21,639 nt of DNA from Bdellovibrionales bacterium. Its GTDB lineage: Bacteria > Bdellovibrionota > Bdellovibrionia > Bdellovibrionales > UBA1609. The stretch is from positions 1 to 21,639 of the forward strand of contig JBFWVI010000030.1 of the NCBI GenBank assembly GCA_050246815.1, in the 5' to 3' direction. The translations under genes and the position numbers were made by a program. This document shows positions 15,516 to 21,264 of the stretch, piece by piece (within the stretch, counting starts at the first letter, position 1; each line of letters starts with the position of its first letter). The notes below the pieces were generated by a model. That model was given only the letters and a program-made list of their open reading frames with translations, searched no databases and had not been told where the DNA came from.

Positions 15516-15544
15516 TGAAAAGCATCTTAGCCTTTCGCTATTTT
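15511..15544. terminator. Imperfect hairpin between the convergent lipoprotein and nrdB genes (possible bidirectional terminator)
   Basis: AATAGTGAAAAGC-ATCTTA-GCCTTTCGCTATT stem, followed by a short T-run on the plus strand. Confidence 0.4.
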
Positions 15545-16541
15545 AGAACTGTTCGTCAAAAGTGACGTCGCCGGTGACTCCGATTTGGTAGGCAGAAACG
15601 CGGCGTTCAAAGAAGTTGGCAAGCTCTTGCGTGTCCTGCAAAGCCATGAAGTCGAAAGGGTTTTTTGCTCCAAATTCATGGGGCATGCCTAGGCGCTCCA
15701 GGCGTTGATCTGTGATAAACTCTAAATAAGTGCGCATGTCGCGTGCACTTAAGCCGGCTACACCGTTGTCTAAAATATCGTTAGCAAAAGTCATCTCGCA
15801 ATCGATGGCTTCTTTGAACATGGCCACAACCATGTCTTTCATGCGGTCATCGAAGAGCTCGGGCTGTTCGGCCATTGCAGTATCAATGACCTTGTAGGCA
15901 AAATCGATATGAGCGCTTTCGTCACGAAACACCCAGTTGGTGCCGGTAGCCAAACCGTTCAAGAGACCCTTTGAACGCAAAAAATAAACGTAGGCAAAAG
16001 CGGCGAAAAAGAACAGACCTTCAACAGTGCCGGCGAAGCAAATCAGGTTCATTAAAAAGCGTCGGCGGTCTTCAATGGTGTCCAGGCTGTTCAACTGGTT
16101 GATGGAATCCATCCACTTAAAGGCAAACTGCCCCTTCTTTTGAATGGAAGGGATATTGTGAATCGCGCTGAAGGCCTTTTCGCGCTCTTTGAGGTCTGGA
16201 ATATAAGTGTCCAGAAGGGTTAGATAAAATTGCACATGCAGGGCTTCTTCGTACAACTGGCGAGACAGATAAAGTCGGGCTTCAGGTGAGTTGACGTGCT
16301 TATAAAGATTCAGCACCAAATTGTTGCCCACGATCGAGTCACCGGTTGCAAAAAAAGCAACTAAGCGGCTGATCAAGAAACGCTCGTTTGAAGACATCTT
16401 GCTGTTCAGGTCGACGATGTCAGAACTGAAATCCACTTCTTCCACAGTCCAGGTGTTTTTGATGGCGTTTTTGTACATTTCATAAAAGATAGGATATTTC
16501 ATCGGGCGCAAAGTCAGATTGAAGCCAGGATCCAAGATCAT
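15543..16541 (-). CDS. nrdB: Ribonucleotide reductase class Ia beta subunit
   Basis: Metal ligands in FFATGD, EEALH, VEGLFF and RDESAH. Radical Tyr present at H+4 (EALHVQFY). C-terminal NFFERRVSAYQ. Confidence 0.96.
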   Translation of the reverse strand: MILDPGFNLTLRPMKYPIFYEMYKNAIKNTWTVEEVDFSSDIVDLNSKMSSNERFLISRLVAFFATGDSIVGNNLVLNLYKHVNSPEARLYLSRQLYEEALHVQFYLTLLDTYIPDLKEREKAFSAIHNIPSIQKKGQFAFKWMDSINQLNSLDTIEDRRRFLMNLICFAGTVEGLFFFAAFAYVYFLRSKGLLNGLATGTNWVFRDESAHIDFAYKVIDTAMAEQPELFDDRMKDMVVAMFKEAIDCEMTFANDILDNGVAGLSARDMRTYLEFITDQRLERLGMPHEFGAKNPFDFMALQDTQELANFFERRVSAYQIGVTGDVTFDEQF

Positions 16542-16627: not shown

Positions 16628-19078
16628 TTATTGGCACGCTTCGCAGAGCTCTGGGTTCTCTAAGGAGCAGGCTAAGGCCTCCGAATCGGTGTAAGTTTTC
16701 TTTGGAGTCGCCGCTTCGCTCTTGGCGGTCACCTTGGCGATCTTTGTCGCTGGACGTGAACGCAAATAGTAAGTGGTTTTGATTCCTTGTTTCCACGCGT
16801 ACATGTACATGCTGGAAAGCTTGCCGATGGTCGGACTTTCGATAAATAGGTTTAAGCTCTGGCTTTGGTCAATAAAGGCGCCGCGACCGGCGGCCAGATC
16901 GATCAAAGACTTCTGCGGCACTTCCCAAACTGTGCGGAAAATGTGGCGAACTTCCGCTGGAATAGCTTCGATATTTTGAATCGAACCTTCTTGGGTTTTG
17001 ATTTGGTTGCGCACTTCCTCATTCCACAAGCCCGTTCGTTTCAGTTCGTCCACCAGGTAGCGGTTGATCTGAATGAACTCACCGCTTAAAGTTTCGCGTT
17101 TAAACAAATTGGAAACCTGGGGCTCGGTGGCCTCATAAGCTCCAACAATCGAAGCGATGGTGGCTGTGGGCGCAATTGCGATCATCAAGGAGTTGCGAAG
17201 ACCAATCTTTTTGATTTTGCGGCGTAGATTTTCCCAGCGCTCCATGTCTTCGGGCACGACGCCCCAGTGGTCGAACTGCAACTCGCCTTGGGCGGCGCGG
17301 GTTTCATTAAAGGACGGGTGAGGTCCCATACGTTCCGCCATTTGGCACGAAGTCAAAAGGGCGTTGTAATAGATTTCTTCTTGGATTTTATTCGACAGTT
17401 TCAATGCCTCTTCAGAATCAAAGGCATAGCGTAGCTTAAAGAAAGCGTCTTGCAGGCCCATGACACCCAGGCCCACCGGGCGCCAGCGTGCATTTGAGGC
17501 GCCTGAGGTTGGAGTCGGGTAAAAGTTGATATCGATCACGCGATCCAAGTACTTCACCGCCACTTGCACGGTGTGGGCCAACTTTTCAAAATCAAAAGCG
17601 CCGTTGATCACATGGGCGCCCAAGTTGACCGAGCCCAGGTTGCACACGGCGGTTTCGCCGCTTGAGGTCACTTCCAAAATCTCGGTGCAAAGATTGGATA
17701 AATGAATCACGTTTTCAGGGCGGCCAGTCTGGTTGCTTTTTAAATTGCTAGCGTCTTTAAACGTCATCCAACCGTTGCCGGTTTCAGCCAGTGTTTTCAT
17801 CATGCGCGAATAAAGATCACGGGCTTTGACCTGGCGGGCGAAGAGCTTGTGTTCTTCGGCTTCGACGTAGGCTTTTTCAAATTCCGGGCCAAAGCTGTCG
17901 ACGAAGTGGGGCACGACTTTGGGGTCGAATAACGACCACATGGCATCGGCTTCAACCCGTTTCATAAACAAGTCTGGAACCCAGTTGGCCAAATTTAGGT
18001 TGAAGGCGCGTGAGGCTTCATCGCCAGTGTTTTCGCGCATATGCAAAAATTCTTCGATGTCGGCGTGCCAGGACTCAAGATAAACGCAGGCGGCACCTTT
18101 GCGGCGACCGCCTTGGTTCACGGCCGCAACCGAAGAATCTAGGGTTTTCAACCAAGGGATCAAGCCGTTCGAGTGGCCATTGGTGCCCTTGATCAGCGAG
18201 CCGCGGCTGCGCACGCGCGAAAATGAAACACCGATGCCTCCGGCGAATTTAGAAAGCAGTGCGATGTCTTTATATTTGTCATAGATCGAGGATAAGTCAT
18301 CCAGCGGTGAATCGAGCAAATAGCAGCTTGAGAGCTGCGAGCGCTCTGTGGCCGAGTTGAACAGGGTTGGTGAACTGGGCATATAATCCAAAGTCGAAAT
18401 CAACTCATAAAATTCTTTTGCCTCTTGAAAGGTTTTGGCTAGACCGCAGGCGACCCGCAAGAAGAAGTACTGTGGCGTTTCGATCACCAGACGCGACTGT
18501 GGGTCTTTTAAAAGGTAGCGATCATAGACTGTGCGCAGCCCAAAATACTCAAAGCGATGGGTGCGGGTGGAGTCGATGATGATATTTAAAGCTTCTTTAT
18601 GTTCTTTGACGAATTCATATTTTTCTTTGGAGATAAGTCCGGCTTGAAAGCCGCGTCCGACGGATTCATAGAAGTTACGGATATTTTGTTGGTGAACTTC
18701 TTCGTCAATATAACGAGCCAACAAACGTGATGCCAGTTTTGAATATTCGGGCTCTTCGCCAATTAAAAGCGCCGCTGTTTGAATGCACAACTGATCAAGT
18801 TCTTTGGTGGTGGCGCCGTCGTATAGTCCGCTGATGACCTTGGTGGCCACACGCATGGGGTCCACGCCTTTTAGGCCACTTGAGCAGGCTAGAGCAACAT
18901 TCACGATTTTATTGACGTTAACGGGCTCTTGCGAGCCATCGCGTTTTTTAACCCGCATAACGATGGGGCCGTCGGTTTCGCCCGCGTTGCGGGCGGCGGG
19001 TGTTTCTGTCATCGGTTCAGTTGTCGGCGTGACAGGTTGGCGAAGGAGTGGGTTGTTGAGTTCTTGTTGCGTATTCAT
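16628..19078 (-). CDS. nrdA: Ribonucleotide reductase class Ia alpha subunit with N-terminal ATP cone
   Basis: ATP cone (VKKRDG), SPTLFN, QLSSC, QGGRRKGA, SNLCTEI, CNLGS, APTATI, DQSQS, TTYYLR and C-terminal CEAC. SD GAGGAG at 19094-19089. Confidence 0.97.
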   Translation of the reverse strand: MNTQQELNNPLLRQPVTPTTEPMTETPAARNAGETDGPIVMRVKKRDGSQEPVNVNKIVNVALACSSGLKGVDPMRVATKVISGLYDGATTKELDQLCIQTAALLIGEEPEYSKLASRLLARYIDEEVHQQNIRNFYESVGRGFQAGLISKEKYEFVKEHKEALNIIIDSTRTHRFEYFGLRTVYDRYLLKDPQSRLVIETPQYFFLRVACGLAKTFQEAKEFYELISTLDYMPSSPTLFNSATERSQLSSCYLLDSPLDDLSSIYDKYKDIALLSKFAGGIGVSFSRVRSRGSLIKGTNGHSNGLIPWLKTLDSSVAAVNQGGRRKGAACVYLESWHADIEEFLHMRENTGDEASRAFNLNLANWVPDLFMKRVEADAMWSLFDPKVVPHFVDSFGPEFEKAYVEAEEHKLFARQVKARDLYSRMMKTLAETGNGWMTFKDASNLKSNQTGRPENVIHLSNLCTEILEVTSSGETAVCNLGSVNLGAHVINGAFDFEKLAHTVQVAVKYLDRVIDINFYPTPTSGASNARWRPVGLGVMGLQDAFFKLRYAFDSEEALKLSNKIQEEIYYNALLTSCQMAERMGPHPSFNETRAAQGELQFDHWGVVPEDMERWENLRRKIKKIGLRNSLMIAIAPTATIASIVGAYEATEPQVSNLFKRETLSGEFIQINRYLVDELKRTGLWNEEVRNQIKTQEGSIQNIEAIPAEVRHIFRTVWEVPQKSLIDLAAGRGAFIDQSQSLNLFIESPTIGKLSSMYMYAWKQGIKTTYYLRSRPATKIAKVTAKSEAATPKKTYTDSEALACSLENPELCEACQ

Positions 19079-19340
19079 ACTTTAAAGTCTCCTCTGTGGG
19101 GGTAGGGACACGTTTCGATCACACACCAATTCCGATTTTCAGCGTATAAGGTGCCATTAGACAGGTTTGTCTTGCGATCCGGTTCGACCAAATTCCCCTC
19201 CGTTTTCGGTCGACCTTTTTAATTTTTTCGGGCTCTCGCGGGAATCGTACCGGATCCCTGTACCCCGTCTCACGGCCTTCCTTAACCGCTGTTTCAGAGT
19301 TCGCGTCGTCTGTTTTTTCAGCCGACAGAATCTGAACTTA
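19079..19340 (-). ncRNA. Candidate structured cis-regulatory leader RNA of nrdAB
   Basis: 5' hairpin 19336-19293, then nested helices CAGCG/CGCUG, UAAGG/CCUUA, GCCGUGAGACGGG/CCUGUCUAAUGGC (12/13), GAUCCGGU/ACCGGAUC and UCGACCGAA/UUUGGUCGA. G-U pairs work only on the minus strand. Confidence 0.6.
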
Positions 19341-19346
19341 AATCTG

Positions 19347-19376
19347 ACGCTATCGCGCCTAAAAAACTTCCGTCAA
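19347..19376 (-). promoter_or_regulatory. Sigma70-type promoter for the nrdA leader
   Basis: TTGACG (19376-19371)-N18-TAGCGT (19352-19347). Predicted +1 near 19340, immediately before the 5' hairpin. Confidence 0.5.
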
Positions 19377-19449
19377 GAGTGAAGCCGCACATTACGCGGC
19401 CGATTACAGAAATCTTTTTCTCGTCTCAAGACAAAAAAATCATCGATGA

Positions 19450-19462
19450 AATCAATCACTTA
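19450..19462 (+). promoter_or_regulatory. IHF-consensus site
   Basis: AATCAATCACTTA is an exact match to WATCAANNNNTTR, preceded by an A-tract at about 19433-19439. Confidence 0.45.
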
Positions 19463-19680
19463 AACTTATCCCTTTCGAAGGGGTCCTAAATTCGCTGGCG
19501 TCATTTTTCGCACCATTGACCTATGGTATCTGCGCAGATTTCTTGACTCTTTCACCTGCCTAAAATTTGAGCACGAAATGTTTTGCTTTCGCAAGCAAGA
19601 AGGTGCGCATTGGGCGTCAAACGTTTGTTGAGCGTGAGCGCATCATGACGGAAGAATGACGGTTTGACATGGAACAGCTG

Positions 19681-21264
19681 TCAAAAGCCCCACTCCAGAT
19701 GTAGGTTTAAGTAATGACCATCCATTTTGACCGAACTTGTGCCGTCACCGGCTTTGAAGTCGATCTGATCATGGCGAAAGGCGTAGCCGATAAGCCCCGT
19801 GATATGATCACGAAGTTTATATGAACCCATGAATCCGAGTTGATAAGACAGCGCGGGTTGAAGACTGGCGCCGGCAGGCAGGTCAATGCCCGAGACATTA
19901 TAATAGGTTTGTTGGTTCAACTGCAGTCCAAGTCTTTTGCTGAGGGGCTGCCACAGTTGCACGCCCACGAAAATGTCGGCAGTGGCCAGATTGGTGACGA
20001 CCACGGAATCGCGGGTCAGGCCCTTGGCGAAGGGGCGCTCGCGATAGCCTAAACCCCCGTAAAGGCGCATTTGGGTGACCCCTTGAAAGTAGGTTCGCCA
20101 AATTCCCTGCAATTCGAAAGAAGAATAGGTGTAATTTTTGTTGTTGATGAGCACGCCGCTGAAGTCAGCGATCGCAACGCCACCCCACTGTGCGTGACGG
20201 GCAAAATGGCCGTAACCCAAGCGGCCGGTGCCGTTGATGGCGCCGAATTTCAAGCCCGCTCCACCCAGATCTCCAAATGTTGCTTGGTAATCCAGGCTGG
20301 TTAAAAGATAGCTCGCGATGAAATACTGATCGCGCGCCTGTTCTATGGCCTGACGGCGCTTGGCTTCAGCAATCGCTTTGGGGGTGCGCAAGCCGTCATA
20401 AACATTGAATTCAAGTTCGCGTGGCGATGAGTTTTCGTTCAAGGCCGCACTGGACTGAACTTCAATACGCCAAAGACCACCACTGAACCGTGGGTTCAGG
20501 CGGACTTCAGTTTTCTTCAGGTCTGTCCACTTTTGCAGATCTATCCATTTGCCATCTTTATCCTGACGACTCAATTTCACTTGATAAGAGGTGGCTCCCT
20601 GAGCGGCTTGCCATTTGATGCGTTCGACGAACTGGTCCTCTGGGCGCACGATTTCGGGTGGTTCCAAGGCACCTCCGCGCAAAGTGAACGGGCGAGGTGT
20701 TTTAGGCGATTCGCCCATTTCTTGCGCTTCGGGCATAATGCTGGTCACTTGCCAAGCATAAAGGCGAGCCACCGGCAACTGTAACTTGAGTGTCGTGTCC
20801 TTGGTGGTTTGAGAAGTGACGCTTTCACCTTGCTCATTCAAAATATCGACTTTGTACGCGGCGCTGCCAGGACGCGGACTCCAACTGAATTCAACTTCGG
20901 CTTTTTCAGTTTGGTCAGTCTTTAAGATTTCGTTTTCTGCGGGTTTCAGCAGATCGGGGGGCAGAATGCGCACCCAGTGATCAAAGGCTTCGCCCCATTC
21001 GCCCCACACTCTGCGGTCGTCTTGAGAGCGGATTCGAATCTGGTATTTACCGGGCTGGATGGAACCGCTCCATGCGGTGGTTTTGGTGCTGAAGATGTTG
21101 GGTTTTTTAAGTTTACCGCCTTTCAGATAGCGACGGAATTCCAGTTCATAACGGATACTGTCGGGAACAGCCTCCCACTCCATTTCCACTTTACGTGTGG
21201 GCACTTGCGCAAAAATGGGACCCGCCATCATGGTTAAAATCAAGGTGATCGCAAGTTGTCTCAC
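19681..21264 (-). CDS. Secreted outer-membrane protein: three fibronectin type III-like domains plus a C-terminal beta-barrel
   Basis: Signal peptide (...GPIFA). Three repeats with an FN3 pattern (MEWEAVPDSIRYELEF; FSWSPRPGSAAYKVDI; IKWQAAQGATSYQVKL). About 215 aa of alternating beta-strands ending in a BAM-type signal YLNLHLEWGF. GTG start with GGAG SD. Confidence 0.75.
   Translation of the reverse strand: MRQLAITLILTMMAGPIFAQVPTRKVEMEWEAVPDSIRYELEFRRYLKGGKLKKPNIFSTKTTAWSGSIQPGKYQIRIRSQDDRRVWGEWGEAFDHWVRILPPDLLKPAENEILKTDQTEKAEVEFSWSPRPGSAAYKVDILNEQGESVTSQTTKDTTLKLQLPVARLYAWQVTSIMPEAQEMGESPKTPRPFTLRGGALEPPEIVRPEDQFVERIKWQAAQGATSYQVKLSRQDKDGKWIDLQKWTDLKKTEVRLNPRFSGGLWRIEVQSSAALNENSSPRELEFNVYDGLRTPKAIAEAKRRQAIEQARDQYFIASYLLTSLDYQATFGDLGGAGLKFGAINGTGRLGYGHFARHAQWGGVAIADFSGVLINNKNYTYSSFELQGIWRTYFQGVTQMRLYGGLGYRERPFAKGLTRDSVVVTNLATADIFVGVQLWQPLSKRLGLQLNQQTYYNVSGIDLPAGASLQPALSYQLGFMGSYKLRDHITGLIGYAFRHDQIDFKAGDGTSSVKMDGHYLNLHLEWGF

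Follow-up and report, generated by a model that had tools for sequence, protein, structure and literature searches.

What occupies the long gap ahead of the ribonucleotide reductase (RNR) genes nrdA and nrdB of a Bdellovibrionales bacterium, and by what means might it act on them? The window analyzed here is a stretch of 21,639 nucleotides (nt) of contig JBFWVI010000030.1 (assembly GCA_050246815.1), and on its minus strand, which carries all features described below, a gap of 600 nt separates nrdA from the next upstream gene, which ends at 19681. The initial annotation had placed in this gap a large structured leader RNA that would sense a ligand or a protein. Comparison with relatives upholds the leader: judged by its sequence, the region from about 19340 to 19079 (262 nt) is a real, conserved and unclassified cis-regulatory 5' leader of nrdAB, with a promoter that is kept in related genomes and a fold that beats shuffled sequence. 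As to what it senses, we put forward, tentatively, that it may be a new translational leader of the CsrA type, bound by protein at its hairpin loops.

The window genome belongs to the Bdellovibrionota, and the best matches of its NrdA, at no more than 84% identity, are titled Pseudobdellovibrionaceae or Bdellovibrionales metagenome-assembled genomes. The comparison sample comprised 109 genomes of the family, 98 of which have NrdA, and 60 nrdA upstream regions. The leader evolves fast; a DNA search of 41 relatives found G003 as the sole alignable relative, at 74% identity. For the genus of the window (g1) the set comprises three full leader sequences and two partial strain variants, the latter on contigs from two other metagenomes that match parts of the leader with a likeness of 90-95% or below and at a depth of about 4, so that single differences could be errors while paired differences are unlikely to be.

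A transcription start near 19340 is predicted and well supported by comparison. The promoter (19347 to 19376) consists of a -35 element TTGACG (19376-19371), an 18-nt spacer and a -10 element TAGCGT (19352-19347); a consensus promoter scan returned no sites and missed it. TTGACG-N18-TAGCGT precedes nrdA in 28 of 40 family genomes in one batch and 4 of 20 in another, the looser pattern TTGAC-N18-20-TA[GTA][CA][GC]T, TATCGT variants included, is found in 52 of 62 nrdA upstream regions, and the motif occurs a single time in the window's own 3.4-Mb genome. This recurrence before nrdA, together with the single genomic occurrence, supports the start that had been read from a promoter-like element. 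The leaders that follow nrdA promoters in the family are usually long, at 59-400 nt.

The RNA expected from this start folds better than chance, and does so on the minus strand only. The 267-nt leader reaches -88.6 kcal/mol, compared with -70.7 ± 5.1 for dinucleotide shuffles (z -3.50, with none of 200 shuffles as good), whereas its plus-strand complement has z -1.05 and is equaled by 30 of 200. The strand asymmetry is thus real, the leader passes the comparison with shuffled controls on which the initial annotation had staked its claim, and a minus-strand RNA is preferred, as it had argued, over a palindrome in the DNA. All the helices that it named are present where it had placed them. Its long 5' hairpin, here P0 (19293 to 19336), has z -4.89 when taken alone (19340-19291; 0 of 200 shuffles) and z -2.32 in its G003 counterpart, which bears out the hairpin in the window; family-wide, a duplex test found z below -2 in only 1 of 17 leaders, which is not significant and weighs against P0 as a feature of the family. 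The 5' strand of P0 carries the family-conserved (G)UUCAGAUUCUGUC, which includes a 9-nt palindrome, CAGAUUCUG (19334-19326), and the conserved 5' motif UGUUAAGAAUCUGUU of the family leaders reads GUUCAGAUUCUGUC in the window. In the two strain variants this strand is unaltered; changes are confined to the loop and the 3' strand of P0 and include G19319-C19312 to A-U on both sides, G-C to G-U and U-G to U-A.

Downstream of P0, the initial annotation had described a nested domain of about 150 nt (19140 to 19291). A 149-nt segment of it (19290-19142) has z -4.90, with none of 200 shuffles as good, and its minimum free energy (MFE) structure includes the named closing helices, the 12/13-bp helix and the 8-bp helix; forcing the named 9-bp hairpin into this fold costs 0.7 kcal/mol (-57.2 versus -57.9). 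In relatives the domain is kept in part. RNAalifold on the three g1 leaders retains the outer closure AAGG/CCUU plus GCCGU/AYGGC in all three, with little covariation; in the window this closure is UAAGG/CCUUA (19284-19280 with 19151-19147) and GCCGU/AUGGC (19276-19272 with 19157-19153). The trio consensus also retains GGG/CCC with GGGA/UCCC and two hairpins, C and D, described below. The 8-bp helix and the distal 12/13-bp helix are missing from this three-sequence consensus, and in the nearest relative, G003, five of the eight pairs of the 8-bp helix are retained as read from alignment A2. The MFE structure of G003 is itself a four-branch shape like that of the trio consensus (z -2.28), and that of G002 consists of local hairpins (z -2.13). 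Of the proposed domain, close relatives keep the outer closure, but neither the 8-bp helix nor the greater part of the 12/13-bp helix. Comparison gives no support to a pseudoknot proposed between the loop of the 9-bp hairpin and an upstream UUCCC; the complement is lacking in the aligned G002 sequence.

The unpaired nucleotides that are conserved are not those of a junction core. They lie in loops of CsrA type, A-N-GGA and ACA-N-GGA, and the loops that stay unvarying amid changing stems are A-N-GGA, ACA-N-GGA and ACGGAGGGG. Hairpin B (19272 to 19289) is GCGGUU[AAGGAA]GGCCGU, with the A-N-GGA hexaloop in brackets, and is present in all four genomes of genus g1, where its stems differ (acgguu/ggccgu, agcaguu/ggcugcu and agcaguu/aacugcu) and the loop is unchanged. 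Among the leaders of g46, hairpin B is 96.7% paired, falling to 48% when the alignment is slid by one column; in 5 of 13 one pair is A-U in place of G-C, and its loop reads C-U-U-A-N-GGA-Y-R-A-C-G, in which N is A, C, U or G. Hairpin A' (19247 to 19263), GUAC[AGGGAUCCG]GUAC, contains GUACAGGGAUCC, which matches the CsrA consensus RUACARGGAUGU at 10 of 12 positions, and in other genera its stem appears as ACAC/GUGU or UGCAU/GUGCA. The same region can pair alternatively as GGGAUC/GAUUCC (19258-19253 with 19246-19241) within CGGG/CCCG (19267-19264 with 19232-19229). An A-rich single-stranded linker, AAAAAAUUAAAAA (19216 to 19228), has the family consensus CA(A)nAAAUU.

Hairpin C (19181 to 19215), GGUCGACCGAA[AACGGAGGGGAA]UUUGGUCGAACC, includes the 9-bp hairpin of the initial annotation and carries a loop that resembles a Shine-Dalgarno (SD) sequence. 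Its local MFE structure encloses the G-run in all 14 leaders that have it, with z -2.28 in the window, and one strain contig has U for C19208 and A for G19189, both halves of a single pair (a compensatory C-G to U-A change). Hairpin D (19159 to 19172), AGACA[AACC]UGUCU followed by UAAUGG, is part of the trio consensus and in alignment A5 is 85.9% paired, with changes on both sides in three of five pairs. Support for the pairing of C and D as a module is moderate: an alignment fitted by the C+D covariance model (R1) is 73.1% paired versus 66.4 ± 1.6 in shuffles and shows both-side changes in 12 of 17 pairs versus 6.5 ± 1.5, and a +1 slide of the same alignment is still 61.9% paired with an equal covariation score. 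Consensus folding beyond the genus suffers from misalignment, owing to which MAFFT with RNAalifold on five divergent leaders was uninformative and a consensus fold of the g46 leaders showed hairpins A, B and D but missed the stem of C. A metagenome scan with the pattern AAGGANGGC...GTACANGGANNNGGTAC returned two loci, both in unrelated coding sequence, and was set aside. In four leaders that lack C+D (L100, L104, L115 and L132), the G-run word (C)GAGGGGG, or GGAGGGG in L115, is the SD of nrdA itself.

These hairpins come and go as units. In g1 hairpin B precedes A', and in g46 A comes first and B second; the C+D module is missing in G001, of the same genus as the window. Other close relatives that share the promoter and the gene do without further hairpins, A and B in L087 and C in both L096 and L107. 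Such modularity, with hairpins gained, lost and reordered, is more readily reconciled with several protein sites than with a single aptamer, and a protein-bound leader is favored also because the invariant nucleotides are those of loops that read A-N-GGA with N free. The protein that these loops suggest is CsrA. Selection in vitro (SELEX, systematic evolution of ligands by exponential enrichment) gave RUACARGGAUGU as its consensus, in which ACA and GGA do not vary and the GGA sits in a hairpin loop, according to the excerpted text of PMC4347634. The window leader has one near-consensus site in a GGA loop, that of A', and two more hairpins with GGA in the loop, gcgguu[AAGGAA]ggccgu and tcgaccgaa[AACGGAGGGGAA]tttggtcga. 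Eight of 52 family leaders, spread over at least five genera, have a site that matches the consensus at 10 or more of 12 positions, versus 0.39 ± 0.65 (at most 4) in 1000 shuffles; such sites occur at none of 61 nrdA upstream regions of other phyla and at 2 of 17 further Bdellovibrionota loci, and the background in the window's own genome is 58 in 6.8 Mb (8.5e-6 per nt). ANGGA in the loops of stems of at least 5 bp was counted at 48 sites versus 23.4 ± 4.4 expected, a number that none of 300 shuffles reached.

The genome of the window encodes the protein. The csrA gene (C8:7738-7965; PF02599, 92.9 bits) adjoins fliW (PF02623, 124.9 bits) in a cluster at C8:6238-9393 (L126) that also holds a flgL-like gene, and CsrA is found in 102 of the 109 family genomes. 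Flagellin leaders are the classical target of FliW-CsrA control, and those of this genome carry the hairpins GUCUCA[AGGAA]UGAGAC, GCGCA[AAGGA]UGCGC, CAUUA[CGGA]UAAUG and GUACAAGGAA. Among its seven flagellin genes, several are preceded by A-N-GGA hairpins and by an SD that contains GGA, as in a circuit of the B. subtilis type; the leaders lie at C22:30750, C8:30700, C8:32030 and C5:41541. When clusters of ANGGA hairpins were ranked genome-wide, three flagellin leaders and the nrdA leader were among the top 11 clusters listed. Other top clusters, each with four ANGGA-in-loop hairpins within 200 nt, lie at C122:1204(-), C35:33915(+) and C98:5555(-) and may be further CsrA targets. In B. bacteriovorus, CsrA represses a hag reporter, as reported in the excerpt of PMC13443453. 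The nrdA leader of that species, read by eye from L036, has GCUA[AGGAA]UAGC.

In the mechanism that we propose, CsrA would bind the predicted GGA-bearing loops and tune translation of nrdA, most likely by repression, although the direction is a guess. CsrA dimers would sit on hairpins B and A', whose GGA triplets (19281-19279 and 19257-19255) are about 25 nt apart, on loop C (GGA at 19200-19198) and on the GGA of the nrdA SD, GAGGAG (19089 to 19094). Binding would hold the RNA in its local-hairpin form over the more stable long-range fold and block entry of the 30S subunit at nrdA and, where an upstream open reading frame (uORF) exists, at the uORF start as well, and RNR synthesis would then track the CsrA-FliW status of a cell. 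The GGA of the SD (19094-19089) is preceded by G-A rather than by A-N and lies outside any predicted hairpin loop. Leaders under CsrA control, such as hag of B. subtilis and glgC and pgaA of E. coli, likewise combine GGA hairpin loops upstream with a GGA in the SD, and the FliW-CsrA-flagellin circuit of hag is matched here by a csrA gene that adjoins fliW and by flagellin leaders with the same kind of hairpin. The window leader differs from them in its target, since RNR was in no paper found as a target of CsrA (literature searches turned up nothing on nrd leaders of Bdellovibrio, nor on nrdAB under the control of CsrA), and in being much longer and able to take a very stable long-range fold as well.

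Several observations weigh against CsrA as the ligand of this leader. In the window RNA, forcing all local hairpins yields a structure 21 kcal/mol above the MFE (-36.8 versus -57.9), and the MFE structure hides the motifs of hairpins B and A' inside long helices. Taken in isolation, hairpins B (z -0.89) and D (z -0.77) are unremarkable. A first and broader test, for any GGA in the loop of a stem of at least 4 bp, found no enrichment (168 versus 153.9 ± 10.3). The ANGGA and SELEX tests were picked after it and run on leaders related to one another, and for both reasons the shuffle figures given above overstate the case. Of three sites behind the rank of the nrdA leader, one lies in the promoter and not in the RNA, and with two sites the leader is one of several hundred such stretches. 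CsrA is so nearly universal in the family that a correlation of presence and absence is impossible. Finally, CsrA binding does not account for the A-rich linker, for the conserved 5' motif or for UAAUGG...UAUAC, a stretch that follows hairpin D.

A second explanation is a new small-molecule riboswitch, which we regard as unlikely. On binding a metabolite (a deoxynucleoside triphosphate (dNTP) or nucleoside diphosphate, ATP/dATP, a cobamide or some other compound), the 150-nt domain would here pass from the long-range fold to the local hairpins or back, and so alter access for downstream initiation. The R1 model fits such a sensor, in that each of the 13 genomes it matches (of 109 in the family, and from 2 of 35 genera) has a single match, located ahead of nrdA, a strict link to a single gene. 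So does the domain itself, which folds at z -4.90 and is nearly invariant in the strain variants while the adjoining 3' strand of P0 is heavily changed: in the better strain contig, 19154-19290 has three substitutions and one deletion, and 19291-19315 has ten substitutions and three indels. Pairings that exclude each other, hairpin B versus the AAGG/CCUU closure and hairpin D versus the 12/13-bp helix, make two states of the RNA possible; in the window MFE structure the 3' strand of D goes into the 12/13-bp helix, and forcing D costs 8.3 kcal/mol. Conserved unpaired stretches that are otherwise unaccounted for count in its favor as well, and the genome has two further RNR large-subunit loci (C45:19376-21031 and C4:42078-43964).

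Known riboswitch families, for their part, offer no home to the leader, as the initial annotation had anticipated. Rfam 15, with its Cobalamin, AdoCbl-variant and purine/2'-dG families, has no match in the whole window at gathering score and, at E up to 10 on 19000-19720, gives only the chance-level AaHKsRNA82 (19.8 versus 51.4 bits, plus strand) and HIV-1_SL4 (15.9 versus 31); 17 Bdellovibrionota nrdA loci likewise gave no match. In Actinomycetota the Cobalamin riboswitch RF00174 forms a structured leader before closely related class Ia nrdAB genes (in Nonomuraea, L070, at 97.1 bits), a precedent that would favor a riboswitch here, but RF00174 is absent from the window, the 17 Bdellovibrionota loci and the whole own genome. 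The words AAGGAAGGCCGUGAGA and AGCCCG, which resemble parts of that riboswitch by eye, were rejected for want of covariance model support. 2'-Deoxyguanosine riboswitches of the purine clan, known from Mesoplasma florum, are RNA sensors that control RNR genes; the Rfam scans gave no purine-clan match, and the window leader is unrelated to them in size and architecture.

The comparative data also speak against a single aptamer. The three g1 sequences share only the outer closure and local hairpins, the 8-bp and distal 12/13-bp helices are not retained in G003 or G002, and no one architecture is kept through the changes of hairpin order between g1 and g46 and the losses in G001, L087, L096 and L107. 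The loop nucleotides that are conserved most are a protein-binding motif, and the 3' part of the leader (z +0.93) has neither a terminator nor a clear SD-sequestering helix. With the domain kept only in part, the modules variable in order and presence, and the conserved loops of CsrA type, the small molecule becomes the less likely half of the original proposal of a ligand- or protein-sensing leader, and the protein option fits best.

It is quite unlikely that the leader is simply a long 5' untranslated region (UTR) without a specific sensor, its effect exerted by way of mRNA stability, mRNA processing or Rho, or that its 5' motif is an operator in the DNA. For the former, long leaders are the rule before nrdA in the family, the RNA has a stable 5'-terminal hairpin, and a precedent exists in the same operon of P. 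aeruginosa PAO1, where an nrdAB 5' UTR of 411 nt reduces the amount and the stability of the transcript as well as the protein, through no element that the excerpted report (PMC12528414) identifies. That leader resembles the one in the window as a long untranslated stretch before nrdAB, with an effect on expression that is negative according to the same excerpt (PMC12528414), and differs from it in belonging to another phylum and in that the window leader has specific conserved hairpins and a candidate protein partner. For the operator, the CAGAwTCUG palindrome has a central base that flips between lineages, as would suit a DNA-binding dimer. The flip itself is by lineage: AGAUUCU in the window, G003 and L146 and AGAAUCU in most of g46, a pattern that would suit a dimer at about +7 to +15 and equally an RNA strand. 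Loop-specific conservation with covariation of the stems, and the enrichment of CsrA-type motifs, are left unexplained by either version.

There is, lastly, a uORF of 38 codons (19075 to 19191), whose TTG start (19191-19189) lies 5 nt past the GGAGG of loop C and whose stop TGA (19077-19075) overlaps the nrdA ATG. Similar uORFs, starting 3-7 nt after the G-run and reaching the nrdA start, are found in 9 of 14 leaders versus 1.12 ± 0.97 in shuffles, and the exact ATGA overlap in 6 of 14 versus 0.67 ± 0.78; none of 1000 shuffles reached either count, although these tests too overstate, the leaders being related. The uORF frame differs between the window and G003 (37 codons), which suggests that openness is kept rather than a peptide. 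Of the exceptions, three lack a start codon, one has an ORF of four codons, and a fifth leader has 12 codons ending 57 nt before the nrdA start. Translational coupling, in which loop C would serve as the SD of the short ORF and nrdA translation would depend on that of the uORF, is very unlikely, as four of 14 leaders lack the uORF and a fifth stops short while all five retain the loop motif, a strain variant turns TTG into TTA by the substitution that, with its partner, preserves hairpin C, and the start codon lies inside the stem of C. The uORF is possibly an accessory, and not a core, part of the CsrA-type leader that we prefer.

The genes on either side complete the description of the locus. 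The nrdA gene (16628-19078; start ATG 19078-19076) encodes 816 amino acids with ATP-cone and RNR domains by Pfam, and nrdB (15543-16541) is confirmed by Pfam as well. The N-terminal 40 or so residues of NrdA that precede the ATP-cone (GPIVMRVKKRDG; 18960-19078) are highly variable in length and sequence family-wide. Upstream of the nrdAB promoter, an ORF of 527 amino acids (19681-21264) is without a Pfam match, and between the two lies a small hairpin, CCCUUCGAAAGGG (19483-19470). Elsewhere in the genome, the RNR ORF at C4 is 1056 amino acids long with its Pfam barrel match in two pieces, which suggests an insertion, and the palindromic words ATATTGATCTGG / TATCTAGAATATCA upstream of it may be NrdR boxes.

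The genome does encode nrdR (C106:880-1308), but no site within four mismatches of the box CACTAGATATAGTG occurs in 19079-19700, and thus no tandem boxes. In distant members of the family (L112, L119, L122, L123, L129 and L135) the promoter TTGACA-N18-TATCGT is followed within the first 60 nt by two palindromes that resemble NrdR boxes, placed directly 3' of the same promoter. The window nrdA has no box nearby; here, in g1 and in g46, RNA modules occupy the place that the box-like palindromes hold in these relatives. The nrdA locus may accordingly show a swap of regulatory layers.

Ribonucleotide reductase sets the dNTP supply, and in predatory Bdellovibrionota DNA is replicated only in the non-motile growth phase. 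It is doubtful that the leader is an undescribed RNA switch that gates RNR and hence DNA replication in predatory bacteria of the Bdellovibrio kind, either as a new class of riboswitch or as an RNA in which FliW-CsrA chooses between the long-range fold and the CsrA-bound hairpins and so couples dNTP supply to the switch between motility and growth. Were it a riboswitch, a new class would have been found on a central pathway. If instead CsrA controls this leader, nrdAB would be the first CsrA target other than flagellin to be named in the phylum Bdellovibrionota, and, as its partner FliW reports on flagellin, CsrA would provide a direct post-transcriptional link from motility to the supply of DNA precursors.

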